Assembly: GCF_029946505.1 (NCBI RefSeq)
Contig: NZ_JARZHG010000009.1
Span: 1-42,926 of the forward strand
Direction of reading: 5' to 3'
Length of the DNA: 42,926 nucleotides
Source of the DNA: Polyangium sp. y55x31
Lineage (GTDB): Bacteria > Myxococcota_A > Polyangia > Polyangiales > Polyangiaceae
The notes under the pieces: model-generated
Told to the model about the DNA's origin: nothing
Seen by the model: only the letters and a program-made list of their open reading frames with translations
Database searches by the model: none
Shown: positions 1-16,786 of the stretch, piece by piece
How positions within the stretch are numbered: the stretch's first letter is position 1
Layout: each line of letters begins with the position of its first letter
Program-made: the position numbers and the translations under genes

Positions 1-2790
1 CTCCGCGGCCGCATCCGCCGCCGGAGCCTCGGGCGCCGCTGCTCCCTCCGCGCCCGCCGCATCCGCGCCGCCCGCATCCGCGCCGCCCGCGTCCGCGCCT
101 GCCGCCGCGCCGTCCGCCCCGCCGGCCTTGGCCTGTGCGCCTGCGCCGGCTTGCGCGCCGTCGCCGCCCTTGCGCACGTCCTGGGCCTCTTTCATCGATT
201 GCATGGCGGTCTTGCCGGCGTCCTTGACGATGTCCTTCGCCTTTTCGAGGCCCTTCGTCAGGTTCTCGGCCGACGCCTTGATCGCTTCGCCCGTCGATTG
301 CGCGGCCTCCACGACCTTCGCCGCCTCGGCCTGCGCCGCCGCCGCCGCCTGCGTGCAGGTGTCCGTCGCCTCCTTGGCGACCGCCGTCATCTTCTCCTTC
401 GCCGCGGCAATGACGTTCTTGGCCTTCTCGCCCTCCGTCCGCACCTCGCCCATCTGCTGGTTGAGGACGTCCGTCAATGCCTTCGCCGCGCCGTCGAATC
501 CGGCCGCGCTCATCGCGGCCGCCGCCTGCTCGGCCGCATTGTTCACGGCCTCGGCCGCATTCACGCCCGCCGTCACCGCGGCCTCGGCCGCATTCGCCGC
601 CGACGCGATCATCCCTTCGAGACCACCCGACACCGCGAAATTGATCGCGCCCGCCGCGTCGAGCCCCGCGCCCGCCGGGACGATGAGCGCGAGCGAGCCC
701 TGCACCGCCCCGAAATCGCCTCGTATGCCGCCGAGGACCCCGTAGGCCGCTTTTTTGATCTCCGACAGCGCCGTCCGCGCCTTCAGGAGGATGTCGTCCT
801 TCGTCGCATTGGCGAGCCCCTGCGCGAGCGTGATTTCGCGCTGAACCGCGACCCGCGCGACCTCCTCCAGCTTGAGGAGCCGCGCCGGGATGTCGTTGAC
901 GAGCGCGTTCGTCTTCTCCTCGAACGCCGCGCCGAGATCCTTGAAGCGCTGGATCGAGGTCTCCACCGTCCTGCGAATGGAGGCCACGAGCTCGAGGACC
1001 TGCGTCTCGATGAGGTCCTTCATCTCCGACGCGAGCTGCTTGAACCGCGCCTCGGCCGCCTTGATCGCCCCCATGATGTCGGCGAGCGTCTTCTCGTAGA
1101 ACGTCTTGCCGGCCTCGACGAGCGCGTCGGCCGCCGCCTTGATCTGCTTCTTGCAGTTCTCGAGGTAATCGGGGATCTTCTTCGTGATCGCGTCGACGAG
1201 CATCTTTTGGAGCTCTTCGAACGTCTTCTTGACCGCCTCGCCCTTGTCCTTGATGGACGCCGCGATGCTCGACGCGATCTGAACCGCCTGCATCGCGAGC
1301 TTCGGCCCGAGCGCGGCGATCTGCGCGACGACCTTGATGCCCTGCGCCTGGATCTTGGGCTTCAGCAGGGTCGCCTGCATCTCGAAGTCCTTGATCAGCT
1401 TCTCCCCTTGGGCCTTCGTCTTGGCCTCGATCTGCTTGATCGCAGCCTCGCCCTTGGCCCGGATCTTGGGGATGACCGAGGTGTCTTCGGAATACCCGGC
1501 GTTGATGAAGTCGGCGAGCGCGTCGTCGTGGCCCTTCGCGCCCTCGGCTACGAGATCCCGGACGATCTTGTCGGCTTCGAGGTTCAGGTCGGCCTGGAGC
1601 GCCTTGATCGAGGCGTTCATCTTGCCGCCGAGCTCCTCGACCGACGCGACGACGGAGTCCTCCATCGTCTTGAGGATCTTCTTGCATTCGGCCTCGAACG
1701 TGCCGAGCAGCTCGTTCGCCGCCTTGCGCACGTCCTCCAGCGTGCCGAGCGTCAGGTCGCGGATCTGCTCGAGCAGTTTGTCGAGGAGACGATCGAGATC
1801 CGCCTTGATCCCTCGCACGAGCGCGAAGCCGTCCGCGAGGAGTTTGTCCACCGTGCTCGTGATCGTGAGGAGCGCCTGGTTGAGCAGCTCCGCCGTGCGC
1901 GCAACGAGCCCGTGCGCGAGGTTCGAGATCTCGTCGATCGTCTTCTGGATCGCGTCATTGACCTTCGCGAGGATGTCCTGCGCGCACTGGTTGATGCGAT
2001 CGGGGACCTCGCCGATCGTACGCCGCACGTCGCCGATCGTCTGCATGATCGTGTCGTCGGTCTGCTTGACCAGCGACTTCAACGTCTCGCGCGCCTGCTC
2101 GATCGAGTCCTTCGTGGCGCTGCGCAGCTCATCGACGACCGCGTCGATGTTCGCCGACATCTCGACCTTGGCGCCGTCGTGATCGGGCACCTTCGCGAGC
2201 GCCGCCTCGAACTTGCCGCGCACATCGTCGCCAATCGCCTGGATCTTGCCGTCGATCTGCCCTTCGAGATCACCGAGCTTCTGATCGACCGTGTCGGCCT
2301 GCGCCTTCACAGTGTCGAGGACCTTCTTCGCCTGATCCTCGCCGAGCTGTCCGATCTCGTCGATCTTGCCCTTCGCCGCGTTCGCCGCGTTTTGAATCTG
2401 ATCCTGGGCTGTCTTGACGAGCGTGTCTTTTTGCGATTCGAGCTTGCCCTCGACCTCGTCGACGAGGCCGTCGAGCTTGCCCTTGGCCGTCTTGATCGCG
2501 TCCTCGCCCATCTTCTTGAGCTCGGGCGTGATCCCTTTGAGCTGGTCCTCGGTCTCCTTGATCGCCTTGTCGATCCCGGACGAGATGCCGTTCTTCGTCT
2601 CGTAGAGCGCCTTGTTGAGCTTGAGGATCTGCTCTTCGGCCTTGCTGATGATCTGGTTCGTCGAGTCCCGGACGGTGGAGACGCCCTTCGTGACCGTGAC
2701 CTCGGCCTTGTCGATCTGCTCCGTGGCGAACTTCCCGAGCTTGCTCGGAATGCTCTCCGTGGCGCCTTGGCTCTGTTCTTCGGTCGTCAT
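1..2790 (-). CDS. Large Lys/Glu/Ala-rich coiled-coil protein, partial (930 codons visible; the C-terminal part runs off the left edge). Function unknown. Visible tail is an Ala/Gly/Asp pentapeptide-type low-complexity region (GADAG-like).
   Basis: Not in the ORF track because no stop lies inside the window. Manual translation of the minus strand from the ATG at 2790 (revcomp of cat at 2788-2790; GGAGAGGA purine-rich box ~14 nt upstream) gives an uninterrupted 930-codon frame with high GC3. It begins MTTEEQSQGATESIPSKLGKFATEQIDKAEVTV... and is rich in heptad-like K/E/A/I/L periodicity. The supplied + strand ORFs over this span are Ala/Ser/Arg-rich antisense artefacts. Confidence 0.6.
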   Translation of the reverse strand, partial: MTTEEQSQGATESIPSKLGKFATEQIDKAEVTVTKGVSTVRDSTNQIISKAEEQILKLNKALYETKNGISSGIDKAIKETEDQLKGITPELKKMGEDAIKTAKGKLDGLVDEVEGKLESQKDTLVKTAQDQIQNAANAAKGKIDEIGQLGEDQAKKVLDTVKAQADTVDQKLGDLEGQIDGKIQAIGDDVRGKFEAALAKVPDHDGAKVEMSANIDAVVDELRSATKDSIEQARETLKSLVKQTDDTIMQTIGDVRRTIGEVPDRINQCAQDILAKVNDAIQKTIDEISNLAHGLVARTAELLNQALLTITSTVDKLLADGFALVRGIKADLDRLLDKLLEQIRDLTLGTLEDVRKAANELLGTFEAECKKILKTMEDSVVASVEELGGKMNASIKALQADLNLEADKIVRDLVAEGAKGHDDALADFINAGYSEDTSVIPKIRAKGEAAIKQIEAKTKAQGEKLIKDFEMQATLLKPKIQAQGIKVVAQIAALGPKLAMQAVQIASSIAASIKDKGEAVKKTFEELQKMLVDAITKKIPDYLENCKKQIKAAADALVEAGKTFYEKTLADIMGAIKAAEARFKQLASEMKDLIETQVLELVASIRRTVETSIQRFKDLGAAFEEKTNALVNDIPARLLKLEEVARVAVQREITLAQGLANATKDDILLKARTALSEIKKAAYGVLGGIRGDFGAVQGSLALIVPAGAGLDAAGAINFAVSGGLEGMIASAANAAEAAVTAGVNAAEAVNNAAEQAAAAMSAAGFDGAAKALTDVLNQQMGEVRTEGEKAKNVIAAAKEKMTAVAKEATDTCTQAAAAAQAEAAKVVEAAQSTGEAIKASAENLTKGLEKAKDIVKDAGKTAMQSMKEAQDVRKGGDGAQAGAGAQAKAGGADGAAAGADAGGADAGGADAAGAEGAAAPEAPAADAAAE

Positions 2791-2903
2791 GTGGCTAGGC
2801 CCCGTCCTCTCCCAATGGCGCGGTCACGGCGAGCGATGCCCACGAATCGGGATGCCACGATACCGCGGCGCGCGCGCAGTTGACAAGCCTTCTCCCCCCT
2901 CTT

Positions 2904-2931
2904 CTCCCCTCTCCCGAGAGGGAGAGGGGTT
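2904..2931 (-). terminator. Perfect inverted repeat CCCCTCTCCC-gaga-GGGAGAGGGG (10-bp stem) between the tssG stop and the coiled-coil gene. Candidate intrinsic terminator or processing hairpin with no U-tract.
   Basis: Read directly in the sequence; flanked by a pyrimidine tract. The minus-strand sequence TTGTCA-N18-TATCGT downstream of it (about 2884..2855) resembles a sigma70-type promoter about 65 nt before the ATG at 2790. Confidence 0.4.
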
Positions 2932-2948: not shown

Positions 2949-3998
2949 TCAACCGCCTAGCCCTTTCCGAATGGCCGCACGGGACAAACGCACCTCGCGG
3001 ATCTTCCCGCCGTGCTTGTTCACGTTTCCAAGCCAGGCGATCTGGCCAAGAAGCGCGCGCGTCGCGCTGCCAAGCTCGACCCGCGGCGCCTCGCCCTCGG
3101 CGAGCACGAGGATGAGGCCGAAGTGGAATCGTGCGCCTGCATAAAAACGGACGAGGGAGCAGAGAGGCCGAAGCGCATCGCCGTCCGGAAGGAATCGCAG
3201 GAATTCATCGAGCTTCATGGGCCCGATGCGCAGGTCGAACGTGGACTCCTGATCCCAGAAACGCCCCCCGAGGCAAGCATCGCGGCCGAGCGCGCGGTTC
3301 TGTCCGGACCGGCCGATCGCCGTGCGATCCGTCGCCTCGATCGGATGAAAGGCGCCCGTGAGCGGGATGGGCTCGATGGGAACACCAAAATGCCGTCGGA
3401 GGATGGCGACCAGGCCTTCGAGCGAGCGCGACTCGCTGGAAAAGGTCGCCGCGTGTTCGAGGAGCGCGCGATCCTGGACCGCGAGGCGGCCTTCGAGCGC
3501 CTGAAAGCCGAGGCCGATGAACGCGAAGAGGTGCCGCGCCGCGCCGTCCTTCTCGGGCGAGGAGACGCCGAGGCCGACACGATGGCCCTTGCGGATGCGA
3601 TAAGCGAACGAGACGAGGCGATGGTTGAAGATGTCGAGGAAATCACGCGCCGCGGTGTCGCCGCGGACGGCGCGCATGTAAATCGACTCGACGATGGGCG
3701 GCGGCAGCGGGCCGAGGGCGCCGCCGAGGCCGAGGAAGTTCACGAGCATCGGCGCGGGCTCGCCCTCGCGGTGCGGCGAGCGAATCCGCGCGACGTCGGT
3801 CTCGGGGAAGGCGAGCGCGACGCTGCCCGAAAAGCGCACGGCCTCGCGCGAGGGATCGGAGCCCTCGCCGACGGGGACCGCGTCGCCTTCGCGCCAGCGT
3901 TCGAGGAGGGCCACGGCCTGATAAAAATCGAAGGCGTGCCCCTCGTCGAAGAGCCAGGCCTCTACAGAAGGGCTCTTTCGCCAGCCGTGGGCGGCCAT
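2949..3998 (-). CDS. tssG: Type VI secretion baseplate subunit TssG (ImpH/VasB family), 349 aa.
   Basis: C-terminal 349 aa of track ORF 2949..5993 starting MAAHGWRKSPSVEAWLFDEGHAFDFYQAVALLERW. This is a TssG-like sequence that lies directly after tssF. The start overlaps the tssF stop by 37 nt. Confidence 0.85.
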   Translation of the reverse strand: MAAHGWRKSPSVEAWLFDEGHAFDFYQAVALLERWREGDAVPVGEGSDPSREAVRFSGSVALAFPETDVARIRSPHREGEPAPMLVNFLGLGGALGPLPPPIVESIYMRAVRGDTAARDFLDIFNHRLVSFAYRIRKGHRVGLGVSSPEKDGAARHLFAFIGLGFQALEGRLAVQDRALLEHAATFSSESRSLEGLVAILRRHFGVPIEPIPLTGAFHPIEATDRTAIGRSGQNRALGRDACLGGRFWDQESTFDLRIGPMKLDEFLRFLPDGDALRPLCSLVRFYAGARFHFGLILVLAEGEAPRVELGSATRALLGQIAWLGNVNKHGGKIREVRLSRAAIRKGLGG

Positions 3999-5770
3999 CG
4001 CTTCCAGACCTCCGCGCGCGAGGCGCGCTTGAGCACGAGCTCGGTGAACGCATTGATGTGCGCCTGCAAGGCGAAGAATCGGCTCAAGACCGAGGCGAGG
4101 AGGACCGGGCTCGATCCGGCGAACTGCTCGTCCGCGAGCGTGAGCGTGATCTCGAGGCCCCGGCAATACCCCCGCCACGCGTCGCTGCCGAGGCGGCGCG
4201 TGACGACGCGGCTCGAGATCTCGAGGAGCGCGTCGATCTGGCGCTCGGCGTCGGGCGAATCGCCGAAGACGTAGGCGCGCAGGATCTCGCGGAGCGCGGA
4301 GACGCCGGTCTTGCCGTCGGTGATCGAGAGGTGGTTCTGCGAGAGGTTCGAGACGAGCCGCCAGAGCGCGTCGCCGCCCATCGGCGCGGCGCGCTGGGGC
4401 GTCGGTTTCGTGAGACAAACGATTTTTTTCGCCGGGACGGGGCGCTCGGGCGAGAGCTGCGTGTCCTTGGCGATCTCGTTCGCGAGGTCGCGGTTCGTGC
4501 AGAGGACGCCGGCGTAGACGGTCTCCGACGGGGGACGCGAGAGCTTGAAGTCGGTGTCGACGAACGTGAGCCAGACGTCGGTGCCCGGCAGATCCTTGCG
4601 GCCCGTGGCGACGCGGCGCGCGTGCCAGAACGCGCGGGGTTTTTCGCCCGAGCGGTGGTGCACGAAGGAGAAAAACGGCGCGTAGTCGATCTGCTTGGGC
4701 TCGCCGGGCGCCGTCGCCGCGACGCGGGTGATCGAATGGACCTCGGTGGTCCGCTCGCGGCGCGCGTCCGCGACGAGGCGATATTCGGGCCGCGTGTGAT
4801 CGACACGGATGGGCTCGGCGCTGCGCGGGAAGAGGTTGATGATCGGGGTGCAGCCGAGCTTCAGCGTGGTCGGGCGGACCGCGACGCCGGCCGGCGGCTT
4901 CTGATCGAAGAGGACCAGGATCTTCGCGTTCTTGCGCGGCGGCAGCTTCGGCAGCTCCAGGTCGAAGAAATGGAACTTCTCCGGGAACGCGAAATACTCC
5001 TGCACGAGCCGGTGGCCGCGGTGCGCGTGCGGCGGATACGGCAGCACGTCCTCGTTCGCCTCGAAGCCGATGGGGCGGATCTTGCCGTAGGCCCAGTCCT
5101 GCGAGGGTTTTTCCCCGACCACGAGGACCTGCACGGCGTGCGCCGCGAGCAGATCGTAGAGGCGCGCCGCGCCCATGCCGCCGCCCGTGATGTGGAAGCG
5201 GAGCGAGCGCATGCCGAGTTTGTCGAGCGGAACGCCACCCGTCGAGATCTCGATCTCGAGCGCCGCCGCGGCGTTCGTGAGCAGCCACGAGGGGAGGTCG
5301 AGGTTCTCGGGCGGGACCATGCCCGCATTGATGATGTCGATCGGCCAGAGCGTGACCGGATACGCGGTTCGGAAATGACAAACCGGCCCGGACTGCGAGG
5401 CCGCGAAGAGCGGCGTGTGCTTGTCGACCGTGTACCCGGAGCCGAGCTTGGCCTCCTTCGGGTCGATCTCGAAGCCGGCGATCGCCATCGCCGGCACGGG
5501 ACACGCGAGCTGCGGATAAAGGACGCCGAGCAGCGACGTCGTGTAAATCGGTAGCTCCGCCTCGATGTCGCGCGTGAGGCGCGCCGAGAGGAACGCGAAT
5601 GCCTCGACCAGGCGCTCGACGTGTGGATCGGACGAGGCCTGGTTCGAGGTGCCGAGGCGCGCCGCGATCTTCGGATAGTCCTTCGCGAACTCGGCGCCGC
5701 GCTCGCGCAGATACGCGAGCTCGCGCGCATACAGCTCGAGCATTTCGCGATCGGGATCTCCCTTGCTCAT
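3962..5770 (-). CDS. tssF: Type VI secretion baseplate subunit TssF (ImpG/VasA family), 602 aa.
   Basis: Track ORF. The N-terminus MSKGDPDREMLELYARELAYLRERGAEFAKDYPKIAARLG is the characteristic TssF/ImpG start. Its ATG overlaps the tssE stop (ATGA). Confidence 0.9.
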   Translation of the reverse strand: MSKGDPDREMLELYARELAYLRERGAEFAKDYPKIAARLGTSNQASSDPHVERLVEAFAFLSARLTRDIEAELPIYTTSLLGVLYPQLACPVPAMAIAGFEIDPKEAKLGSGYTVDKHTPLFAASQSGPVCHFRTAYPVTLWPIDIINAGMVPPENLDLPSWLLTNAAAALEIEISTGGVPLDKLGMRSLRFHITGGGMGAARLYDLLAAHAVQVLVVGEKPSQDWAYGKIRPIGFEANEDVLPYPPHAHRGHRLVQEYFAFPEKFHFFDLELPKLPPRKNAKILVLFDQKPPAGVAVRPTTLKLGCTPIINLFPRSAEPIRVDHTRPEYRLVADARRERTTEVHSITRVAATAPGEPKQIDYAPFFSFVHHRSGEKPRAFWHARRVATGRKDLPGTDVWLTFVDTDFKLSRPPSETVYAGVLCTNRDLANEIAKDTQLSPERPVPAKKIVCLTKPTPQRAAPMGGDALWRLVSNLSQNHLSITDGKTGVSALREILRAYVFGDSPDAERQIDALLEISSRVVTRRLGSDAWRGYCRGLEITLTLADEQFAGSSPVLLASVLSRFFALQAHINAFTELVLKRASRAEVWKRWPPTAGERALL

Positions 5771-6243
5771 GCGGCCCCCGGCCCCGCGTCGAGCGGCGCC
5801 TCGAACGAGAGAGGTTCACGCACCTCCTCGGTGACGAGCGTCGCCGAGAGCGCGACCACGAGGCGCGCATGCGGCGCCGCGTCCTCGCGTCGCTTGATCT
5901 CCACGCGTACGTTCTGGAGCCTCGGCTCGTACGCCTCGATCGTCTTCTGCACGAGGCGAACGAGGCGGCGAAGCTCCTCCGGGACGAGCGCACGGCCGCC
6001 GAGCTCGAGGTCGGGCAAACCGTAATCGATGGTCGTGCGCTGCCGGGAGAGAGCCTCGTCGCCGGAGATGGGGCTGCGGGTGCTCAGAATTCGACCGAGC
6101 TCACGGGCCACCGAGGCGCGCAGCCCGTCTCGATCGAAGGTGCAATAAGGAACGGCCTCTTGCTTCTGGGCAGGGTTCTCGTCGATCAGGCGATCGAAGA
6201 GAGGTACCCTGCCGGCGCTCGTGGATCCCCAGGCTTTTGCCAT
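5767..6243 (-). CDS. tssE: Type VI secretion baseplate subunit TssE (gp25-like), 158 aa.
   Basis: Track ORF containing ...GRVPLFDRLIDENP..., a TssE/gp25-like motif. Size and position between hcp and tssF fit. Confidence 0.8.
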   Translation of the reverse strand: MAKAWGSTSAGRVPLFDRLIDENPAQKQEAVPYCTFDRDGLRASVARELGRILSTRSPISGDEALSRQRTTIDYGLPDLELGGRALVPEELRRLVRLVQKTIEAYEPRLQNVRVEIKRREDAAPHARLVVALSATLVTEEVREPLSFEAPLDAGPGAA

Positions 6244-6291: not shown

Positions 6292-6783
6292 TTACTTCGT
6301 GTTGGCTTCGAGGTTCCAGGTGCCTTCGGCCGTACCCTTCTTGCCGGCCGGCGAAGGCTGGCCCTGCTGCGCGTACGACCACTTGATCTTGCGATAGTTG
6401 AACGTGACGGTCTCCACGGGGCGACCGCCGCTGCCGCCGCTCACCGAGACGTTCGTCAGGATCACGTCCTCGAACGTGATCTTGTAATAAAGGACCATGT
6501 CGCCGTCGGCCTTGTCGGCCTGGAAGACGGTGAGCTCAGCCGTCTTGATGTTGTCGCCGCCGCTGCACTTGAGGTTCAGCGTGGGCGAGGAGATGTCGAG
6601 ATACTTGCTGAACGTGAAGTCCGAGTGGACCGTGCGGCCGTGCGCGCGCGCGTTCGCCGAGGCGCCGCTCGTCAACGGCATCGCCACGGCGTGGCTGAAC
6701 GAGAGGATCTCGATCTTGTCCTTGCCCTGCGCCGCCGTGCTCTCGCCCTTGATACCTGCAATCTCCAAAAAACTCGTTTCCAT
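6292..6783 (-). CDS. hcp: Hcp (TssD) inner-tube protein, 163 aa.
   Basis: Internal start METSFLEIAGIKGESTAAQGKDKIEILSFSHAV within track ORF 6292..6852 (M24). GGAGGA lies 7 nt upstream. Hcp family N-terminus and length. Confidence 0.9.
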   Translation of the reverse strand: METSFLEIAGIKGESTAAQGKDKIEILSFSHAVAMPLTSGASANARAHGRTVHSDFTFSKYLDISSPTLNLKCSGGDNIKTAELTVFQADKADGDMVLYYKITFEDVILTNVSVSGGSGGRPVETVTFNYRKIKWSYAQQGQPSPAGKKGTAEGTWNLEANTK

Positions 6784-6888: not shown

Positions 6889-8391
6889 TCACGCAGCCGG
6901 CGGCGGAAGATCCGCCACGAGGCGCATCGAGACCGTGAGCTCGTTGAGCTGGAAGTGCGGCTTCAAGAAAACGACGGCACGGTACGCGCCGGGCTTGCCG
7001 GGAACGTCCGTCACGTCGATCCGCGCCTCACGCAAAGGCAGCCGCGCCTTCGTCTCCTGCCCCGCGTCGTCGTTCAGGAGCACGTAATCCGCGATCCAGT
7101 TGTTGAGGTACGACGACACGTTGTCCTTCGTCATGAAGCTGCCGATCTTGTCGCGCATCATGACCTTGATGTAATGGGCGAAGCGGCTCGTCGCGAGGAT
7201 GTACGGGAGCTGCGCCGACAGACGCGCGTTCGCCGTCGCCGAGGGCAGGTTGTACACCTTGGGCTTGTTCGCGGTCGAGCCGCCGAAGAACGCGGCCTGG
7301 CCGCTGTTCTTGCGATAGCAGAGCGAGATGAAGCCGAGCTCCGAAAGCTCGTTCTCGCGGCGATCGGTGATCGCCACCTCGGTCGGCGTCTTCACGGCGA
7401 GATCACCCTCGCTCGTCTTGAAGACGTGCACCGGGAGGTTCTCGACGAGGCCGCCGCCCTCGACGCCGCGGATCGCCGCGCACCAGCCATAATGCGCGAA
7501 CGCGTTCGTGATGCGCTGGCCGAGCGCATACGCCGCGTTGCCCCAGAGGAAGTTCTTGTCCTCCGCGCCGACGTTCTCCTCGTAGACGAACCCGTCCACG
7601 GGGACGCCCTTCGGGCCATACGGCAGGCGCATGAGGACGTGCGGAAGGACGAGGCCGACGTAACGGCTGTCCTCGCTCTCGCGGAACTCCTTCCACTTGA
7701 TGAGCTGCGTGCTCTCGAAGAGCTTCGCGAGATCGCCGGGCACGCCGATCTGGCCGAAGTTCTCCATGTCGAAGAGGAACGGGCTCGCCGCCGAGATGAA
7801 CGGCGCGTGCGCCGCCGCCGCGACCTTCGAAAGCTCGGTCAAAAGGCCGACGTCCGGGCTCGATCCGTCGAACTCGTAGTCGCCGAGGAGCAGGCCGTAG
7901 GGCGCGCCGCCGAACGTGCCGTACTCCTCCTCGTAAACCTTCTTGAAGAGCGAGCTGCGATCGAAGTCGGGCGAGGCCTCGAAATCCTTGCGGAGCTCGT
8001 CCTTGCGGACGTTCATCACGCGAATCTTGAGGCGCGTGCTCGTCTCCGAGTTCATGACGAGGTAGTGCAGCCCCCGCCACCGCGCCTCGAGATACTGGAA
8101 CTCGGGCGCGTGCAGGATCGCGTCGAGCTGCTTGCCGATGATCTCGTCGATCTCGTTGATGCGATCCTGAATGGCCGCGACCGCGCCGAGATCGAGGGCG
8201 CGCTGCTTGTCGTTCGGGTCGCGCTCGTCGAGGATCTGCTGGCAGAACTCGCCCACGATGTCGCGGGCGTGTTTCTTCTGGACGGGGTTGTCCCCGCGAA
8301 CCATCGCGCCCTCGGCGAGGATCTGATCGATGATCGCCGCGCCGTCCGCGCTCGTGTCGATGTGTTGTTTCGCGCTGCTCGTTACCGGCAT
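6889..8391 (-). CDS. tssC: Type VI secretion contractile sheath large subunit TssC (VipB/ImpC), 500 aa.
   Basis: Track ORF; full-length VipB/ImpC-like sequence (…PFISAASPFLFDMENF…, …LPYILATSRFAHYIKVMMRDKIGSF…). GGAGGA lies 7 nt upstream of the ATG. Confidence 0.93.
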   Translation of the reverse strand: MPVTSSAKQHIDTSADGAAIIDQILAEGAMVRGDNPVQKKHARDIVGEFCQQILDERDPNDKQRALDLGAVAAIQDRINEIDEIIGKQLDAILHAPEFQYLEARWRGLHYLVMNSETSTRLKIRVMNVRKDELRKDFEASPDFDRSSLFKKVYEEEYGTFGGAPYGLLLGDYEFDGSSPDVGLLTELSKVAAAAHAPFISAASPFLFDMENFGQIGVPGDLAKLFESTQLIKWKEFRESEDSRYVGLVLPHVLMRLPYGPKGVPVDGFVYEENVGAEDKNFLWGNAAYALGQRITNAFAHYGWCAAIRGVEGGGLVENLPVHVFKTSEGDLAVKTPTEVAITDRRENELSELGFISLCYRKNSGQAAFFGGSTANKPKVYNLPSATANARLSAQLPYILATSRFAHYIKVMMRDKIGSFMTKDNVSSYLNNWIADYVLLNDDAGQETKARLPLREARIDVTDVPGKPGAYRAVVFLKPHFQLNELTVSMRLVADLPPPAA

Positions 8392-8411: not shown

Positions 8412-8915
8412 CTAGCTCTGTTCGTCCTTCGAAACTTCCGCCTTGATCTTTTCGAGAGCCTCGGTGCTCTCCATGACCTCACGCAGCGCCGCCGAGAGCT
8501 CGTCGTTGCCCTCGAGCTTGGCGAGGAGGTCGTTCAGGCGCTCGCGCGCGCGGAGCAGCTTGCGGAGCTCCGGGATGCGCTCGACGAGGCGCTCGGGCCG
8601 GAAATCGTCGAGGTGCGTGAACGTCAGAGGGATCGCGATCTTCCCCGTGCCCTTGAGGACGTCGTCGACCTTCACCGTGATCTCCGGCTTCGTCGAGGCG
8701 AGGACGTCGTTGAAATTGTCGCGGTCGATCTCGACGAACTTGCGATCCTTCAGCTTGGGCAGCGGATTCGCGGGGTTCTGCCCCAGGTCGCTGAGCACGC
8801 CGACCACGAACGGGATCTCTTTCTTCTCGATTGCGTTGCCCGTCTCGACGTCATACGTGATCTGCACGCGCGGCGGACGGTTCCGGTCCAGCCAGTGCTG
8901 CTTGCTCTCTGCCAT
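8412..8915 (-). CDS. tssB: Type VI secretion contractile sheath small subunit TssB (VipA/ImpB), 167 aa.
   Basis: Track ORF: MAESKQHWLDRNRPPRVQITYDVETGNAIEKKEIPFVVGVLSDL. VipA family; immediately upstream of tssC. Confidence 0.9.
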   Translation of the reverse strand: MAESKQHWLDRNRPPRVQITYDVETGNAIEKKEIPFVVGVLSDLGQNPANPLPKLKDRKFVEIDRDNFNDVLASTKPEITVKVDDVLKGTGKIAIPLTFTHLDDFRPERLVERIPELRKLLRARERLNDLLAKLEGNDELSAALREVMESTEALEKIKAEVSKDEQS

Positions 8916-9073: not shown

Positions 9074-10156
9074 TTACTCCTCCCTCCCGCGCATCCCGAG
9101 CAAGCGCTGTATCGCCACGAGATCATCAGGGTTTCCCACGAACTCGTAGAGGAGCTGGGCAAGCGACATGTTGCCCCACTGCACCGCACGTTTGACCAGG
9201 TACGGCACAGGGCTGTGCGGCTCGGTCCGCATGAGGTACTCGGCCGCCTCGGCCAGCCGATAATAAGCGTCGGCGCGGCTCGAGATCGCAAACGAGCCGC
9301 CCCCTCCTCCCCCGGAGGGCGCCGTGAACGCCGCCGCAGCCGCAGCCGCCGCGGCCGATCCGAGCGGCGGCGGGTTTGCCGCGGACAGAGCGGGCTCCGG
9401 CGCGCTCTCGCCGTTGATGCGCGCCGCATCCCGCGCGAGGAGCTCGATCTGCGTGAGGACCTCCCGCACGCGGCGGAGCGTGGGCGGGCGCGGGATCTGC
9501 GCGCCGATCGCCGCCTCGGCCGCCTCGGCCGCCATGACGGCCGTGCCCGCGTCGAGCGCGATGTCGGTCCAGCGCGTGCCCGCGCCGCCGAGCGAGATCT
9601 TGGCGAGCATCGATTCTCGCGTGGGCCGCCCGCCCTCCCCTTCCCCATCGGAAGAGGCCTGTCCGCCGAGCTCCCAATCGAGCAGCGAAAACGAGGCGTC
9701 GCCGTCCGTGAAGGGCGTGCGGCGCAGGCGATCGGAGAGGATGTCGTCCATCCACTCGTAAAGCGCGACGCGCGCGGACGCGTCCGGATCGTCGCCCACC
9801 TCGGGGAAGAGGCCGTCCCAGAACCGCTCGCAGAGCCCTGCGACGAGGGACAAACCATGGCCGAGGCCCTTCACGCGGTAGCGCCGGAGCCAGGCCTCCA
9901 CGAGCCAGGCCGCGATCTGGAGGTCCTTCGATTTCTTGCGCAGCGCTTCCTGGCAAAGTTTGTCCACGAGCGCGAAGTCGGCGACCTTGAGCTTGGTCTC
10001 CCATTCGCCCATCGGCAGCGAGGGATCGTCCTCGCGGCGCGCCTCGCGGACCCGATCGTAGGTGCCTTCGTACCGGAGAGACGAGCCACTCGGCGCCTCC
10101 TCGGAGATGGGCTGGAGCAGCGTCTCCAGATCGATGAGCGGGGCCTTCGTCGACAT
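9074..10156 (-). CDS. tssA: Type VI secretion protein TssA (ImpA_N domain), 360 aa.
   Basis: Track ORF. The ImpA N-terminal signature is present (…PISEEAPSGSSLRYEGTYDRVREARRED…KSKDLQIAAWLVEAWL…). It sits between tssM and tssB. Confidence 0.8.
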   Translation of the reverse strand: MSTKAPLIDLETLLQPISEEAPSGSSLRYEGTYDRVREARREDDPSLPMGEWETKLKVADFALVDKLCQEALRKKSKDLQIAAWLVEAWLRRYRVKGLGHGLSLVAGLCERFWDGLFPEVGDDPDASARVALYEWMDDILSDRLRRTPFTDGDASFSLLDWELGGQASSDGEGEGGRPTRESMLAKISLGGAGTRWTDIALDAGTAVMAAEAAEAAIGAQIPRPPTLRRVREVLTQIELLARDAARINGESAPEPALSAANPPPLGSAAAAAAAAAFTAPSGGGGGGSFAISSRADAYYRLAEAAEYLMRTEPHSPVPYLVKRAVQWGNMSLAQLLYEFVGNPDDLVAIQRLLGMRGREE

Positions 10157-10170: not shown

Positions 10171-13100
10171 CTAAAGGTTCGGGGCGGACGCCGGAAACTC
10201 GGGGTATCTGAGGAGCCGGTCCTTCTCGACGCCGGTGATCGCGACGCGGATGAAGACACGGACGGTGTTGGCGTCGGTGCCGACGCGCTCGATGAAGCCC
10301 CCCGTGGGATCGGGCGACGATTGCACGACGAAGCCGAGCACGTGGGATCCGCCCTCGGTCTTCTGCGAGCCGTCACGCGCCGAGGTCTGGTGGAACGCGA
10401 TCATGCGCAAAAGCGCCCAGGGGCCGCGCTCCTCGAACGTGACGGTCCGATCTTCCACGAAGACATTGGGGCCCTGCGTCGGCAGCGGGACGTCGAGGCT
10501 GCTCTTCGCCCAGCGCAGATCGAGGCGGACCGGATCGTTCACGCGCCAGCTCGCCTCGGCCTTGGGGCCGTCGCGATAGAGGCGTTCGTCCGCGAGCCGC
10601 ATGGCCCACTCGGCGATGCGGTTGCCGCCGACCTCGAGGCCGGGATTGACGCGGAACTCGACCTTGACGTCGTAGATGCCGTCCTCGGCCGACTCGACCT
10701 GCGCCCACATGGGCATCATGAAGGCGCGGACGGCCTCGATCTTTTCGAGGAATCGCCCGACCTCGCCGGCCGAGGCCTTCGTGTCCTTGCCGAGGACGTA
10801 CCCAAAATCGGAGCGGAAATCGGCCGCGTCCTGGAGGAAACGACGCACGGTCTCGGGCCGCGCGTCCTCGACGCGGATGCCCGGCTCGATCTTGACGAAG
10901 GGGAACTTGCCCGAGAGCTCGCGGTTGAAGGTGCGGCGGAGCGCGGCATAACGATCACGCATCTCCTCGCCGGCGAGGACGCGGCAACGCTCGCGCAGCT
11001 CCTCGACCATGTATTTCTGTTTGCCCGCGAAGAAGCCGCCCGAGCCGTCGACCCCGGCGCGTTTGTCGAGCTCGGCGATGCAGTTCTTCGCCGTGATGAG
11101 CGGCAGATCGCTGAGCATGAAGGTCTCGAGGTTCGAGACCCCGTTGCCCGCCTTCTTGTTCTCGTAATCCTTGAGCGGCCAGGCGACGTTCTGCCAGAGC
11201 GTGACGTTGGGATCACCGCCCGCGTCGCCCGCGACCTCGGGGCTCTCCATGGCCGCGAGGAGAGGCTCGGCGAGCTCCTTGTGCAGCGTGGCCGCGCGGG
11301 TGCGCTGGGCCGCGGCATACTCGGACAAACGCCCGGCGTCGGGGACGCTGAAGGCCTCGAACGCCGGCGTGGATTTGCCGTCCCACCAGGTGAAGCCGCC
11401 CTTCTTGAGGCCGTAGAGGTTCTCGGCGCGGAGCACCTCGGCGGCGCGGCCGAGGACCTCGGAGCCCTGGCCACGCATGAGCTCGCGGAGGCGATCACGC
11501 GCGTCGTCCATGCGCAGGCGCACGAACGCGCCGATCATCTCGCGGACGGGCGCCATCGCCTGGCCGAGGTTCGCGGCGTCGGCACGGACGGTCTCGAACT
11601 GGCGATTGTTGTTACCAGGGAGCGGCGTCGCGGGACGCGCGGCGCGGGCGACGGCGCCGAGGGTGCTCGCCTTGATCTGGCGGACCGTGAGGTCGGAGAT
11701 GGTGTTGCGGACGCGGGCATCGACCGTCTTCAAGACGCCGCCCTGGAGGAAGGCCTCGTAGTCCTTGGGCAGGCGCGCGGCCTCCTTGAGGACCTCGGCG
11801 TCCCAGTCGACACGCGAGCGATCGAGATCGGGCGTGAGGGTCTTCTCCTCCTCGGCCGTCATGAACGTCTGCTGGCGGAGCGCGTCGATGGGCGGCTTGA
11901 GCCCGAGGATGAAGGGCGAGAGTCGCATGAGCAGCACGCCGCCCTTGCGCTCCAGGATGGGCCCGGAGAGGGGCGAGCCCGCGCTCGCGACGTAGTTCTT
12001 GAGGTCGAGCAGGCGCGCGTCGACGCCGCCGCGCAAGGACGCCTCGACGTCGGGGCCGAGGAGGCGCGAGTTCTTGACGGTCTTCAGGAGGCCCGCGATG
12101 CCCTCGTTCGGCGGGAGCGACTCGCTCGAGACCCACGCGAGCGTGGGCGCGCCGAGGTGCGCTTCGACCCGGGCGATCGCGTCGCGCAAGGTCCAGAGAT
12201 CCTGCGCGGTGTACTCGGTGCCTTTCGTCTCCAGGTCCTTGAGGCTCTGCACGAGCTGCTCGACGTCGGCGCGGACGACGGCGTCGCTGTAGGCTTCGAG
12301 GACACGATCCTGCAGGCCCTTGAACAGGTTCGTCGCTTTTTCGCGGGCCGGATCGCGGCGCGGGGCGAGGTCGATGGGCTGGCGGCGCGCGCCGCGCGCG
12401 AGGGCGTTGCGGTAATACTCGACCGCGATCGTCGGCGAGGTCTTGTAGCCGAGGAGGTAATCCGAGAGGTCGGCGACGCTCTGCATGCGGGCGTCGGGCG
12501 TCGCGTCCTTGGGCAGCTCGCCGAGCAGGCTGTCGTGGCGCGCGACGTGGGCCTCGAACGCGGTGAGCTCGCGCAGCCACGTCTCGAGGTTGATGTACTC
12601 CTGGCTCTTCTCGACGCTGAGCGGGAAAAACGTGTCGGGCGGAGGCTGCGGCGGCAGCGGGCGGAGCAGGTGCGTGGCCTCCTCGTTGAGGCCGGCGCGG
12701 AAGGTGTCGACGAGGACACTCTCGAGCGCGACGACGAACGCCGTGTCGACGCGGCGGTCGAGGCGACCCCACCAGGACGCGGGGTTCAGCGGCGAGCGGA
12801 GGCGGCCCGACTCCTCGATCGTCTCGAGTTTTTCGATGAGGGCCTTCGCGCGGAGCTTTTTCGTGTCGAAGCTCGCCTCGGTGCCCGGGGCCTCGCTCTT
12901 CGCCTGGAGCACGCTGCTCTGGACGTCGCGCAAAAAGGGCATGACCGCTGTGGTGCGTCGTTCGAGGCGCGAGGCGTCGATCCAGAGCGCGGCGAGGAAG
13001 GCGCCGCCGAGGCAACACGCCACGATCTGGAGCGCGAGGTTGATGCGCTGGCGACGGCGGAGCGCGGCGGCCGCGGGCTTGCCGAGGTTCCGCTCGGCGA

Positions 13101-14232
13101 ACACTTTGTGCTCGAAGAGATCCTTCGCGAAGAGGACCTTGCCCGGCGCGGCGGCAGCCGCAGGCAAGGGCTTTTGCGGGGGCGCGAGCGCGGCGGGGGT
13201 GGCGCCGGGGGCCGTGAGCTGCGGAGGGCCGGCGGGCGGATCGGCGAGGCCCGTGAAGTAGATGCCGCGGAGGGTGAGCGTCTCCTGGCCGGCGCCTTCG
13301 AGGAAGACGGGATCGACGTACGTGCGCAGGCCGTCGCCGAGCGACTCGATCTCGCTCGGGAAGAGGAAGAAGTCGTCGGGCGAACGAACGACGGGGGCGC
13401 CGGCGAAGCGCCGCGCCTGGTAACGGAGGAGTGCATCCCGCACGGTGCCGAGCGCCTCGGAGGCCCAGTCCTCCGCGCCGTCGGTGAAGGGCGGATGCGG
13501 GCTCGACCAGCCGAGGATGTCGTCGCGTCCGGTCTGCGTGACCTCGACGCCGAGGCTGCGGAAGCCGGCGAGGCGATCGGTCTGCGTGACGATCACGTAG
13601 ACCGGGACGTTCATGCCGAGGGTCTGCTGCGCGAGGGAGATCGCGGCGCGCAGGACCGTCGCCTTGCGCTTGCGCTCGGCGGGCGTGGAGCGCGCCGTCT
13701 GCATGACCTCGGCGCAAGGGACCGTGAGCAGGATGCCGTCGACGGGGCGATCGGGATAGAGGCGCTTGAGCTCGTGGAGGAGCGCGCGATACGGCGGATC
13801 GGGCGCGGCCGTGCCGCCCTCGCCGAAGAGGAGGCGGCCGGCGACGTCGACGATGAGCGCCTTGCCGAGCATCCAGAGGTTGACGGCCGCGGTGTCGCCG
13901 GGCGCGGGATCGCCGCCCTCGATGAGCTGGACGCTGAGGCCGGAGCCGCCGAGGAGGGTGGTTTTTCCGGACGAGGGTTCGCCGAGGACGAGGTAACGCG
14001 GCATCTCCTCGCGCGCGGTCTTGTCCTGGACCTTCTTGACGAGCGCGGCTTTCGCTTTGTCGAAAGAGGCGCGGATCTCGGCGATGGGATCGGGCGTGCC
14101 GTCGCGCTTGGCGGCCTCCAGGGCCTTCTGCGCTTTTTTCTTTTGCGCGAGGTAAAACGCGTAGATCCCCACGCCGATCACTGCGAGCGCGATCAGGCCG
14201 CCGACGATCTTGAGGAGGGTGCCGACGGTCAC
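10171..14232 (-). CDS. tssM: Type VI secretion membrane-complex protein TssM (IcmF/ImpL family), 1353 aa.
   Basis: Track ORF. N-terminal TM segment followed by the Walker A motif YLVLGEPSSGKTTLL, and an IcmF-like size. GTG start overlapping the tssL stop (GTGA). Confidence 0.88.
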   Translation of the reverse strand: MTVGTLLKIVGGLIALAVIGVGIYAFYLAQKKKAQKALEAAKRDGTPDPIAEIRASFDKAKAALVKKVQDKTAREEMPRYLVLGEPSSGKTTLLGGSGLSVQLIEGGDPAPGDTAAVNLWMLGKALIVDVAGRLLFGEGGTAAPDPPYRALLHELKRLYPDRPVDGILLTVPCAEVMQTARSTPAERKRKATVLRAAISLAQQTLGMNVPVYVIVTQTDRLAGFRSLGVEVTQTGRDDILGWSSPHPPFTDGAEDWASEALGTVRDALLRYQARRFAGAPVVRSPDDFFLFPSEIESLGDGLRTYVDPVFLEGAGQETLTLRGIYFTGLADPPAGPPQLTAPGATPAALAPPQKPLPAAAAAPGKVLFAKDLFEHKVFAERNLGKPAAAALRRRQRINLALQIVACCLGGAFLAALWIDASRLERRTTAVMPFLRDVQSSVLQAKSEAPGTEASFDTKKLRAKALIEKLETIEESGRLRSPLNPASWWGRLDRRVDTAFVVALESVLVDTFRAGLNEEATHLLRPLPPQPPPDTFFPLSVEKSQEYINLETWLRELTAFEAHVARHDSLLGELPKDATPDARMQSVADLSDYLLGYKTSPTIAVEYYRNALARGARRQPIDLAPRRDPAREKATNLFKGLQDRVLEAYSDAVVRADVEQLVQSLKDLETKGTEYTAQDLWTLRDAIARVEAHLGAPTLAWVSSESLPPNEGIAGLLKTVKNSRLLGPDVEASLRGGVDARLLDLKNYVASAGSPLSGPILERKGGVLLMRLSPFILGLKPPIDALRQQTFMTAEEEKTLTPDLDRSRVDWDAEVLKEAARLPKDYEAFLQGGVLKTVDARVRNTISDLTVRQIKASTLGAVARAARPATPLPGNNNRQFETVRADAANLGQAMAPVREMIGAFVRLRMDDARDRLRELMRGQGSEVLGRAAEVLRAENLYGLKKGGFTWWDGKSTPAFEAFSVPDAGRLSEYAAAQRTRAATLHKELAEPLLAAMESPEVAGDAGGDPNVTLWQNVAWPLKDYENKKAGNGVSNLETFMLSDLPLITAKNCIAELDKRAGVDGSGGFFAGKQKYMVEELRERCRVLAGEEMRDRYAALRRTFNRELSGKFPFVKIEPGIRVEDARPETVRRFLQDAADFRSDFGYVLGKDTKASAGEVGRFLEKIEAVRAFMMPMWAQVESAEDGIYDVKVEFRVNPGLEVGGNRIAEWAMRLADERLYRDGPKAEASWRVNDPVRLDLRWAKSSLDVPLPTQGPNVFVEDRTVTFEERGPWALLRMIAFHQTSARDGSQKTEGGSHVLGFVVQSSPDPTGGFIERVGTDANTVRVFIRVAITGVEKDRLLRYPEFPASAPNL

Positions 14233-14984
14233 GTGGCGTCCTCGATGCGGTCGAGCACGTCGTCGAGCTCGGCCGTGCGATAGAGCCAGAGGATCTCACC
14301 GATGACGATCCAGCCGAGGATGACGACGAGGAACGGCAGGATGCCTCGGGAGAGGGAGGGCAAACGCTTCTGGGGGGCGCCTTCCGCGGTGTGCTCGTGC
14401 GCCTGGGGGCAAAGGTCTTCGCCGCGGACGATCTCGGGATCGGTGCGGGCGAGGAAGTCGACGATCCGCGCGCGGTAGGTCTCGGGCTCGCCGGTGCCGA
14501 GGGGCGCATACCTCCCGCGGAAGCCGAGGGCGAGGGCCGTGAGATAAACCGTGAGGAGCTGCGACGACGCGGGCGTGCGGCCGTTGAGGGCGTCGTCGAT
14601 GCGGTTGAAGAAACGGTCTCCGGAGTCGCGCGTCTGAAAGACGATCGATTCGAGCGGTTTGTCGGCCCAGAACTCCTTGCCGGACCAGTCGAGGTGGAGG
14701 AAGACCTCGTCGGCCATGGCGATCATGACGTAGCGGGTCTCCTCGAAGAGGCGGCGCTCGTGCTCGGGGAGCGAGCCCTGGATGTTGTTCGCTTGTTGCT
14801 CGAAGGCGTCGAGGAGGCGCTGCTGGACGGCGTCGTACGGGAGGGCGCCGCCCGAGGCGACGACGAGGCGCTTCTGCGTGACGACGTCCGCGTGGAAGTT
14901 GCAAAACGCGTCGACGAGGACGCGCTGGTCCCGCAGGGCGGCCTGCTTGGGGCCGAGGGCGGATCGTCCCGGAGAAGCAGCCAT
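14229..14984 (-). CDS. tssL: Type VI secretion membrane protein TssL (DotU/ImpK family), 251 aa.
   Basis: Track ORF. DotU-like core (…LLTVYLTALALGFRGRYAPLG…) with a C-terminal TM helix (ILPFLVVILGWIVIG). Confidence 0.8.
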   Translation of the reverse strand: MAASPGRSALGPKQAALRDQRVLVDAFCNFHADVVTQKRLVVASGGALPYDAVQQRLLDAFEQQANNIQGSLPEHERRLFEETRYVMIAMADEVFLHLDWSGKEFWADKPLESIVFQTRDSGDRFFNRIDDALNGRTPASSQLLTVYLTALALGFRGRYAPLGTGEPETYRARIVDFLARTDPEIVRGEDLCPQAHEHTAEGAPQKRLPSLSRGILPFLVVILGWIVIGEILWLYRTAELDDVLDRIEDAT

Positions 14985-14991
14985 CGCGCCC

Positions 14992-16320
14992 CTACCCGCT
15001 CTTCACGTAGAGGACCGCCTCGGAGGGCCCGCTGGCTCCCGTCGGATCGGCCGTGTTGCACAAGGTGAGCGGCTCGCCCGGGTCGAGGTAGACGCTCTGC
15101 TCTTCGAGCTCGAAGAGCAAGGTGCCGGGCGTGGCGACGAGATCGCCGTGGCGCTCGACGCGCTTGCGGCCCGCGCCGAGGATACGGCTCTCTTGCATGG
15201 TGCGCAGGCGGGCCGGGGCGCCGATGAGCGCGCCGTTCATCCAGTTGAGGAGCTGATCCTCGCGCACGCCGCGCGCCGCGCGGACGGCGACGACGAGGGC
15301 GCGCGTGCGGAACTCGCGCTGGAAGAGGACGTTGTACTTGCCGTCCTTGAGGTCGAACGGGTAGGCCGTGAAGGACTCGATGATGCCCTCGTCGACCATG
15401 CGGAAGATGTGATCGCGGGCGTTCTCGAAGGTCGCGCGCAGATCGTCGTGCCGGTACTTGGGCAGGAGCGGCGGCACGGGCGTGCGCGCGAGCGAAGAGA
15501 TCTGTCCGACGAGCCCGGTGAGCGTGACGAAGAGCGAGAAGGGGTGCGGGCGATCGGAGTAGAGGACGGCCTCGAACGGAGGGAGCGCGGAGACGAGGCA
15601 CTGGATCTGGCGACGGACCTCGCCGATGAGCTCGCGATCGGTGGTGCGTGAGAGGAAGTTCGCCTTCTCGGCGAGGCGCATGGCCTTCTCGCGGAGGCGT
15701 CCGGCAAGACGTTGACACATCTCGTCGAGGGGTGATCCCTGTGCGACGCCGAGGGTCGGCGGGATGTAGTCGGTCGCGACGAACGCCTCGCCTTCGAGGC
15801 GGACGCGCGCGATGGGCAAGCAGACGAGGCGCGGCGGCGGCTCGGCCGCGACGAGGAGGCGGACGCTCGGCGCGATGCGCGGGATCTCGAGCGGGTCTTC
15901 GCCCGTGTGCTCGTCCACGACGGGCGCGCCTTCGGCGGAGCAGTTGCGCGCGAGGTCCGCGGCGGAGGCGGAGGTGCCCATCTGCGCGCGCGGGACGGCG
16001 AGGTAGACGGTGGCGGGTGCGTCGCGGACGAGCGCGGCCTGCGGGCGGAGATCGACGGAGAGGTCGAGTTTGCCGCCGGTGTGATGGACGAGGGTGCCAT
16101 CGGGCATGATGGCCTCGACCCTCTGGACACGCAAAAGGCCGCTGCCGAGCGTGCCTTCGGCGAGCTTGAGGTCGATGATGCCGTGGTGATACGGCGAGGC
16201 CTGGCCGAGGTGATAGGCGAGGAGGCGCTCGGATCTGCGATCGGCCTCCTGGAAGTGCTGCGGCGACAGGAGCATCCCGTCGTGCCATTGAATCGCGAGC
16301 GGAATGTCGTCGGCGCGCAT
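14992..16320 (-). CDS. tssK: Type VI secretion baseplate protein TssK (ImpJ/VasE), about 442 aa.
   Basis: Track ORF 14992..16338. The preferred start is M7 (MRADDIPLAIQWHDGMLLSPQHFQ) because a GGAGGA box lies 5 nt upstream of it. The TssK N-terminal WxxGMxLxPQHFQ motif is present. Confidence 0.85.
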   Translation of the reverse strand: MRADDIPLAIQWHDGMLLSPQHFQEADRRSERLLAYHLGQASPYHHGIIDLKLAEGTLGSGLLRVQRVEAIMPDGTLVHHTGGKLDLSVDLRPQAALVRDAPATVYLAVPRAQMGTSASAADLARNCSAEGAPVVDEHTGEDPLEIPRIAPSVRLLVAAEPPPRLVCLPIARVRLEGEAFVATDYIPPTLGVAQGSPLDEMCQRLAGRLREKAMRLAEKANFLSRTTDRELIGEVRRQIQCLVSALPPFEAVLYSDRPHPFSLFVTLTGLVGQISSLARTPVPPLLPKYRHDDLRATFENARDHIFRMVDEGIIESFTAYPFDLKDGKYNVLFQREFRTRALVVAVRAARGVREDQLLNWMNGALIGAPARLRTMQESRILGAGRKRVERHGDLVATPGTLLFELEEQSVYLDPGEPLTLCNTADPTGASGPSEAVLYVKSG

Positions 16321-16321
16321 G

Positions 16322-16786
16322 TCATTCCTCCGGAGCATCGAGGGGGCTCACGACGAGGTCGTCGTCGCCGAGGTCGACCCGCATCCGGCGTTGCGGGCCA
16401 ATCCGAAAGCGATGATCGCCGGGCGAGCGGTAATTGGCAAAGATGACGGCGCCGACGGCCTTGCCAGAGACCTCGACGACCATGGGCGGCGGCGCCTGAC
16501 CGGGGACGAATTCCCAATCCCACTCGGTGAACGCGGTGCCGCTCGGGAAATCCCGGCGCATCTGCTCGCGCTGCTCGTACCACTGCTTGGCGGTGAGCTT
16601 GACGATCTGGTCGAAGAGCTTCGCGTCCTGCACCGCGACGAGGGTCAGGGGGACGGGCGAATTCCGGTTCGCCTTCGCCGTGATTGCGACCTCGACGAGA
16701 AACCTCGTCGGCGGGGGCCCCGAGGAGCAGCCGAGGCCCGACGGCAAGACCAGAGCGAGCGCTACGATCCATCGCGCCCAACCCAT
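16322..16786 (-). CDS. tssJ: Type VI secretion outer-membrane lipoprotein TssJ (SciN/VasD-like), about 154 aa.
   Basis: Track ORF 16322..16819. Preferred start is MGWARWIVALALVLPSGLGC (purine-rich box upstream), which gives a lipoprotein-type signal peptide with Cys. Small size and position upstream of tssK fit TssJ. There is no strong sequence signature beyond the architecture. Confidence 0.6.
   Translation of the reverse strand: MGWARWIVALALVLPSGLGCSSGPPPTRFLVEVAITAKANRNSPVPLTLVAVQDAKLFDQIVKLTAKQWYEQREQMRRDFPSGTAFTEWDWEFVPGQAPPPMVVEVSGKAVGAVIFANYRSPGDHRFRIGPQRRMRVDLGDDDLVVSPLDAPEE

Follow-up and report, generated by a model that had tools for sequence, protein, structure and literature searches.

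A type VI secretion locus of Polyangium sp. y55x31 and the long helical protein encoded beside its core operon

Spike genes and clpV of the Polyangium type VI secretion system

The left end of contig NZ_JARZHG010000009.1 of Polyangium sp. y55x31 (assembly GCF_029946505.1) carries the core operon of a type VI secretion system (T6SS) and, at its very edge, part of a gene for a long helical protein (hereafter the helical gene), which is cut by base 1; the whole stretch analysed, 42,926 nucleotides (nt) from that base, is referred to as the window. We consider it probable that this is an ordinary T6SS core whose spike genes lie as a convergent trio beyond the window's edge and whose clpV is unlinked, next to a helical protein that works independently of the T6SS. 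Eleven T6SS genes (tssJ-like, tssK, tssL, tssM, tssA, tssB, tssC, hcp, tssE, tssF and tssG) occupy positions 2949–16819, all on the minus strand, with overlaps of 4–37 nt or gaps of 7–158 nt between neighbours, and the coordinates thus bear out the contiguous, co-directional, tight or overlapping arrangement reported in a preliminary description of this DNA. Strong Pfam matches were found for ten of the eleven, those for the sheath (TssB, TssC), tube (Hcp) and baseplate (TssE, TssF, TssG, TssK) proteins all lying far above the Pfam cut-offs, whilst the tssJ-like gene is assigned by position. The system is an ordinary member of a known T6SS subtype and is already annotated as a T6SS in NCBI.

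The same description had seen no AAA+ (ClpV) or VgrG sequence anywhere in the window, and tblastn searches together with a P-loop scan agree: VgrG, DUF4280 and ClpV proteins from related loci found no similarity in it, no double Walker A motif is present, and the only in-frame P-loop is that of TssM. To place the missing genes we compared the window with other loci (labelled L001–L093), above all with three relatives in which this region is intact, P. jinanense (L010), P. mundeleinium (L092, on a 13.2-Mb chromosome) and P. spumosum (L093), whose locus proteins are about 86–98% identical to those of the window. Beyond tssG, all three carry the helical gene followed by convergent genes for a PAAR-like DUF4280 protein (PF14107, 1.1e-35), a MORN_2 repeat protein of 250 amino acids (aa) and a 666-aa VgrG (TIGR03361, 3.8e-183). 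In P. jinanense this spike module lies at L010:14801-17956 on the minus strand, and the converging stops of the helical and DUF4280 genes are 7 nt apart; across the three relatives the interval between these two genes holds nothing, a 353-aa open reading frame (ORF), or an ArsR-type regulator plus a glyoxalase. As vgrG and the PAAR-like gene lie beyond the helical gene in the relatives, their absence from the window is most likely an effect of the window or contig end. The window's end (...AAPEAPAADAAAE) coincides with the start of the (PDAKAAV)n-type tandem repeats of the orthologues, four draft assemblies of related strains likewise break off at this point, the drafts L001, L002 and L003 stop within the helical gene, and the assemblies of P. 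fumosum, sp. 15x6 and sp. 6x1 place DUF4280 and tssG or tssF on separate contigs. A break of the assembly within the tandem repeats of the helical gene's tail has probably cut off vgrG and PAAR, and from the three relatives we infer that a vgrG-MORN-DUF4280 trio would lie just left of base 1 in y55x31. The earlier suggestion that vgrG, clpV and PAAR are either further left or elsewhere therefore divides between the genes: further left for vgrG and the PAAR-like gene, going by the relatives, and outside the Polyangiaceae loci for clpV.

The gene that follows tssG was tallied in 79 loci fetched with TssG. It is vgrG, 0.06–0.64 kb away and usually followed by MORN and DUF4280 genes, in 29 of them, and these include the nearest outgroup, Minicystis, which indicates that the gene after tssG was ancestrally vgrG in this T6SS type. 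clpV follows directly (within 0.23 kb) in 14 of the 79, a more distant set, so that of the "clpV/vgrG slot" in which the helical gene had been placed only the vgrG half applies to its nearest outgroups. As far as the loci reach, Minicystis rosea (L016) and the Acidobacteriota loci L012, L014, L019 and L025 have the gene order of the window (tssM-A-B-C-hcp-E-F-G), and in this type, as in Polyangium, clpV is not found between tssG and vgrG. The outgroup order tssG-vgrG-(MORN)-DUF4280 is co-directional, whereas the spike module is inverted in Polyangium and Sorangium and, in Polyangium, converges on the core operon with the ~3.7-kb helical gene, and sometimes other genes, in between; the trio proteins of Minicystis and Polyangium are 60% (VgrG), 48% (MORN) and 81% (DUF4280) identical. 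Altogether about 20–30 loci from Acidobacteriota, Polyangia and other phyla, among them the five just named, have the strongly conserved trio of vgrG, 250-aa MORN_2 and DUF4280 genes directly after tssG, with DUF4280 proteins 59–92% identical across phyla, and the MORN protein looks like a constant accessory of the spike in this T6SS type.

In none of the Polyangiaceae loci (about 11; those checked were the window, L001–L010, L016, L092 and L093) did similarity or a double Walker A motif reveal a clpV less than 10 kb from tssG. The tssG-clpV-vgrG clusters (14 loci, for example L034, L045 and L068) and the Myxococcus xanthus cluster MXAN_4800–4813 have the same core genes, but contain clpV within the cluster (MXAN_4813 in M. 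xanthus). What the window has in common with such clpV-bearing clusters is an LLDxI[ILV]-type motif at the TssC N-terminus (PMC4239648): 20-IIDQIL-25 of the window's TssC is the counterpart of the ClpV-binding motifs 19-LLDEIM-24 of Vibrio cholerae VipB and LLDEII of HsiC3 (PMC4239648), and relatives that have a linked clpV conserve the motif no better than those that lack one. Because TssC keeps this docking-type motif, clpV is most likely encoded elsewhere, where its product would recycle the contracted sheath. Displacement of clpV is common in this subtype, since three outgroup loci with the tssG-vgrG order have it 6.8–8.9 kb downstream. That Polyangiaceae lack ClpV altogether, and clear the sheath with ClpB, another unfoldase or by slow turnover, as has been suggested for further T6SSs that lack clpV, strikes us as unlikely: the absence of clpV from the 10-kb surroundings would fit, and the T6SS operons of Campylobacter jejuni, an unrelated lineage, likewise combine a full structural gene set with a locus lacking TssH (ClpV) (PMC8285248), but the docking-type motif is conserved in Polyangiaceae just as in clpV-encoding clusters, three outgroup loci of the same order have a displaced clpV, and the search covered loci rather than whole genomes. 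We found nothing specific in the literature on a myxobacterial T6SS without TssH.

The helical gene, its product and its family

The helical gene is a real gene under purifying selection. Its GC content at third codon positions (0.913) is like that of the core genes, and its ratios of non-synonymous to synonymous substitution rates against four orthologues (0.13–0.29) fall in the same range as those of tssA to tssG. The full-length orthologues of L010, L092 and L093 have 1225, 1268 and 1237 aa, and the window accordingly misses ~300–340 C-terminal codons, corresponding to an Ala/Pro-rich tandem-repeat tail. The exact sequences of these three orthologues were not in the protein collection; the P. 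jinanense TssG and DUF4280 proteins have consecutive accessions (MDC3956753.1 and MDC3956754.1), so the intact 1225-aa ORF between them seems to be without a protein record in the annotation.

The spacer between tssG and the helical gene (2791–2948 in the window) was compared in seven Polyangium loci: the window, L001, L002, L003, L010, L092 and L093. It varies from 53 to 410 nt, with many indels, yet one sigma-70-like promoter candidate, TTGTCA-N18-TATCGT, is invariant in all seven and is the sole match to this pattern in the window and in the 93 loci; the helical gene thus appears to form its own transcription unit. The hairpin with a 10-bp stem noted earlier between the two genes does exist in the window, but is not conserved: it sits inside an indel, was recovered from only three of eight orthologous spacers (those of the window, L002 and L092) and is lacking from L001, L003, L010 and L093. 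We rejected it as a terminator or conserved regulatory element on account of this patchy occurrence, a z-score of -1.57 and the missing U tract, for which reason there is no terminator-like site at this position.

The product had been described as a coiled-coil protein of at least 930 aa with a GADAG-like end. Length and ending stand (the frame is open for 930 codons and the visible part ends in GADAG-type low complexity), but the protein is an all-helical hendecad-repeat protein rather than a heptad coiled coil. Residues 1–700 are rich in Ala (13%), Lys (11%), Leu (10%) and Glu (8%), and the hydrophobicity of the protein has a period of 3.64–3.67 residues (11/3), with a power of 7.08 at 3.64 and 3.7 at 3.67 against a shuffle maximum of 1.91, whereas the power at 3.5 residues is 0.28, which excludes the heptad (7/2) repeat. 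Every segment of 120 residues shows the 11/3 periodicity as far as about residue 660, and the autocorrelation peaks at lags 11, 22 and 33; the mean hydrophobic moment is 0.373 (shuffles, 0.193 ± 0.013), and the hydrophobic arc spans about 120–160 degrees, with mixed charges on the polar face. Neither a signal peptide nor a convincing transmembrane segment could be recognised in the sequence, and a transmembrane or pore-forming hairpin at residues ~690–720 was discarded as the hydropathy peak there reaches only ~1.5. The tail of ~350 aa is disordered (Ala 33%, Pro 21%, Lys 10%), differs in repeat number between species and ends in a conserved KWPGxGxKP motif; it is about net neutral (35 K+R vs. 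36 D+E), so that a DNA-binding tail resembling histone H1 or AAKP was dismissed.

The structure-prediction search that had been proposed for the 930 residues was carried out and gave all-helix models without a fold match of note. AlphaFold predicts helix throughout to about residue 872, with helices of up to ~219 residues in the alignment-based model, at predicted local distance difference test (pLDDT) values of 56.9 from the single sequence and 66.0 with a 17-sequence alignment. Foldseek against PDB returned generic long-helix matches only (MukB, SMC and designed repeats), with template-modelling (TM) scores of at most 0.17 that we judged meaningless. A sequence search of PDB gave apoA-IV only (E ~0.2), and NCBIfam gave sub-threshold coiled-coil families only. 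Weak profile similarity was confined to apolipoprotein-type families: apolipoproteins A-I, A-IV and E (PF01442) share with the helical protein the 11-residue hydrophobic periodicity and long amphipathic helices, and the 11/22-residue amphipathic repeat that characterises PF01442 is evident in its autocorrelation lags and moment. It is not a member of that family, as the window protein scores 56.8 bits and a full-length orthologue 61.7 bits against a gathering cut-off of 90 bits, and it differs from apolipoproteins in being 4–5 times longer, in having charges that are not sorted as in class A helices, in its disordered Ala/Pro tail, and in being prokaryotic and, by sequence, cytoplasmic. Other proteins with 11-mer amphipathic repeats are apolipophorin III, perilipins, alpha-synuclein and group 3 LEA proteins. 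The helical protein may work like an apolipoprotein-type 11-mer amphipathic repeat protein, without having a structural relative.

Its family is very small. Word-indexed homology searches with the helical protein gave no match, and only an exhaustive HMMER scan of 1.84 billion representative proteins recovered the family, with 32 matches. Eight of these are long collinear homologues (22–28% identity over ~620–860 residues), most of 1054–1171 aa with two longer, which have the motif F[VI]NAGYxEDTSVIPxIRxKGE and low-complexity C-terminal tails in common; the tails of the others are acidic, in contrast to the Ala/Pro/Lys tail of the Polyangium protein, and some members contain an OmpA domain as an insertion. 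The GYxED...IPxIR..G part of the motif, written as a degenerate DNA pattern, had only four metagenome matches, two of them true. No T6SS gene occurs in the nine contexts outside Polyangium (L080–L084, L087 and L089–L091). Two archaellin genes in L089 and a TFIIS-type zinc ribbon in L091 mark the family members there as apparently archaeal; among the proteins labelled P0001–P0010, P0001, P0003, P0004 and P0007 have archaeal-type contexts and P0006, P0008, P0009 and P0010 bacterial ones. A 71% identical orthologue in L088 has upstream of it an AT-richer spacer and the start of a divergent gene, not tssG. Neither L004 nor L006, Sorangium or Minicystis has the helical gene, despite the same clpV-less T6SS. 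Of these, L004 is the closer relative, a Polyangium metagenome-assembled genome (TssG 75% identical) whose corresponding interval is occupied by genes for amidase/M23, LysM and other proteins that run in the direction of vgrG; its TssG ORF (L004:2499-3989) extends into a ~90-aa Pro/Ala-rich C-terminus, unlike other TssG proteins.

P0006, P0009 and P0010 have an OmpA peptidoglycan-binding domain but no signal peptide, and the C-terminus of P0009 is a small beta-sandwich with weak similarity (pairwise E 2e-5) to domains found in vgrG-adjacent Polyangium proteins; these are the only hints of a connection to the envelope or the T6SS. In three archaeal-type loci (L080:7027-8634, L089:8427-9917 and L091:8215-9930) a gene of 496–571 aa without a Pfam match lies upstream on the strand of the family member and may encode a conserved partner. 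In L081 and L084, the genes of P0008 and P0009 each adjoin one for a molybdate/sulfate-type periplasmic binding protein (SBP_bac_11), which could be a shared neighbourhood or just reflect common ancestry of the two genomes.

The role of the helical protein

The helical protein had been put forward as a candidate new T6SS component, cargo or effector. This is unsupported by the comparison: the gene is confined to one Polyangium subclade and L004 lacks it whilst having the same T6SS; it has its own conserved promoter-like site, and the hairpin beside it is not conserved; L092 and L093 have insertions of unrelated genes at the junction; and distant homologues occur in archaeal and bacterial contexts without T6SS genes. 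Its function is most likely independent of the T6SS. We propose that the core operon and the inverted spike operon converge on each other and that the helical gene was inserted where they meet and is transcribed independently; in sister species this site appears to have taken up unrelated genes as well (ArsR and glyoxalase genes, or the 353-aa ORF). The product would form long, straight amphipathic helices with a continuous hydrophobic stripe, which could pack into an unsupercoiled bundle or filament or coat a membrane or lipid surface, whilst the disordered tail may serve as a flexible tether that presents the C-terminal KWPGxGxKP motif to a partner.

Several observations weigh against this account of locus and protein. 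The left flank of y55x31 itself is unseen and is known through L010, L092 and L093; likewise, no ClpV was located in the sequence covered (the window, and 10 kb around tssG), and an unlinked clpV is something we infer. The seven Polyangium genomes with the helical gene all have it beside tssG, and it occupies the interval in which L004 carries effector-like genes (amidase/M23, LysM). Three bacterial homologues combine an OmpA domain with the lack of a signal peptide, a hint at a non-Sec export route. Finally, the biochemical role rests on the periodicity and on low-confidence models (pLDDT 57–66, best TM score 0.17).

Some of these observations would suit a helical protein that travels as T6SS cargo or effector on the VgrG/DUF4280 spike and coats or disturbs target membranes, a role we regard as quite unlikely. 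In favour are the location of its gene, in an interval from tssG to the spike module that in L004 contains the effector-like genes, the strong amphipathic repeat without a signal peptide, the three OmpA-domain homologues that also lack one, and the faint resemblance of the P0009 beta-sandwich to domains of vgrG-adjacent proteins (E 2e-5). Yet the gene and the vgrG operon lie on opposite strands, the gene has a promoter-like site of its own, and no immunity-size gene, adaptor (DUF4123, DUF1795 or DUF2169), PAAR or Rhs element adjoins it; in L010 there is no small ORF in the 7 nt between the stops of the helical and DUF4280 genes. The protein itself has no delivery domain (PAAR, Rhs or adaptor; MIX and FIX motifs were not searched for), its homologues, some of them in archaeal contexts, are never neighbours of T6SS genes, and predicted helices of up to ~219 residues would be awkward spike cargo. 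A related possibility, that Polyangium recruited a member of the rare hendecad-repeat family as spike-delivered, membrane-coating cargo or as a scaffold tethered by KWPGxGxKP, appears decidedly unlikely; if true, it would define a class of T6SS substrate or accessory without known relatives. A lineage-specific T6SS accessory (an anchor, an assembly scaffold or a compensator for the unlinked ClpV) is highly improbable, for although seven Polyangium genomes have the gene beside the core operon and in the same direction, and purifying selection on it is comparable to that on the core genes, the same clpV-less T6SS is present without it in L004, L006, Sorangium and Minicystis, the protein has no ATPase or known T6SS domain, family members occur without a T6SS, and the gene has its own promoter-like site, with a ~400-nt spacer to tssG in L001.

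Other features of the window and wider meaning

Coordinates of the T6SS genes, the helical gene and the elements between them are collected in Table 1. Two core proteins depart from their usual families. The tssJ-like product has no Pfam, NCBIfam or PDB sequence match; its assignment is based on position, the overlap with tssK, the lipobox and the names of its homologues, 64 proteins without a Pfam domain; JGI lists many of these as "type VI secretion system protein". The product may be an outer-membrane lipoprotein of this T6SS type that is either a divergent TssJ or not homologous to it. TssM (1353 aa) is matched by IcmF models over the first ~450 residues only (TIGR03348, 205.8 bits, below the cut-off of 388), and as the IcmF C-terminal domain was not detected the periplasmic part must be highly divergent.

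Table 1. Positions of the helical gene, spacer elements and T6SS core genes in the window
Feature	Position	Strand	Remarks
Helical gene, 5' 930 codons	1..2790	-	ATG at 2790, frame open to base 1
Candidate sigma-70-like promoter, TTGTCA-N18-TATCGT	2857..2886	-	Upstream of helical gene
Hairpin, CCCCUCUCCC-UCUC-GGGAGAGGGG	2906..2929	-	Perfect 10-bp stem, 4-nt loop, no U tract
tssG	2949..3998	-	PF06996, 7.7e-86
tssF	3962..5770	-	PF05947, 1e-195
tssE	5767..6243	-	PF04965 (gp25), 8.6e-15; NCBI name TssE
hcp	6292..6783	-	PF05638, 6.9e-38
tssC	6889..8391	-	PF05943 and PF18945, 8.5e-131; N-terminal ClpV-docking-type motif 20-IIDQIL-25
tssB	8412..8915	-	PF05591, 9.8e-54
tssA, short form	9074..10156	-	PF06812, 1.3e-34; TIGR03363, 2.2e-78, 264 bits (cut-off 161)
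tssM	10171..14232	-	PF14331 (IcmF-related_N), 8e-46
tssL (DotU)	14229..14984	-	PF09850, 1.6e-29
tssK	14992..16338	-	PF05936, 1.1e-49
tssJ-like lipoprotein gene	16322..16819	-	Assigned by position; lipobox LGC; 17-nt overlap with tssK

Further along the window, 19633–23256 (-) encodes a protein of 1207 aa without a Pfam match; it has many repeats of ~50 aa of the FDGTNYLVVW type, a region rich in Cys and a MYXO-CTERM sorting signal that is weak. Just after the end of its gene an intergenic array (19316–19626) comprises about eight degenerate copies of a 22-nt unit (GGGGAGGATGAGATCGTCCTCT), each with a short palindrome (GAGGA...TCCTC). Three very large TPR-rich proteins (about 1470–1690 aa) follow at 23375–27781 (-), 29111–34192 (+) and ~34200–39228 (+), the first with a zinc ribbon at its N-terminus and a long region rich in Pro and Ala with GEIDLPSP/APARPA repeats; the GC content of this region reaches 76%.

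For the T6SS, the locus probably illustrates how repeat-rich genes break short-read assemblies and can make gene clusters look incomplete, and the comparison identifies the vgrG-MORN-DUF4280 trio as a widely conserved spike module of this T6SS type. In Polyangiaceae a T6SS locus that lacks clpV family-wide yet keeps the ClpV-docking-type motif is directly testable in complete genomes. The helical gene, for its part, belongs to a very rare and uncharacterised family of ~1100–1270-aa proteins with 11-residue repeats that is common to myxobacteria-like bacteria and archaea. Nothing here links this family to secretion, and it would be of moderate interest if it proves to be a lipid-surface coat or a cytoskeletal element.

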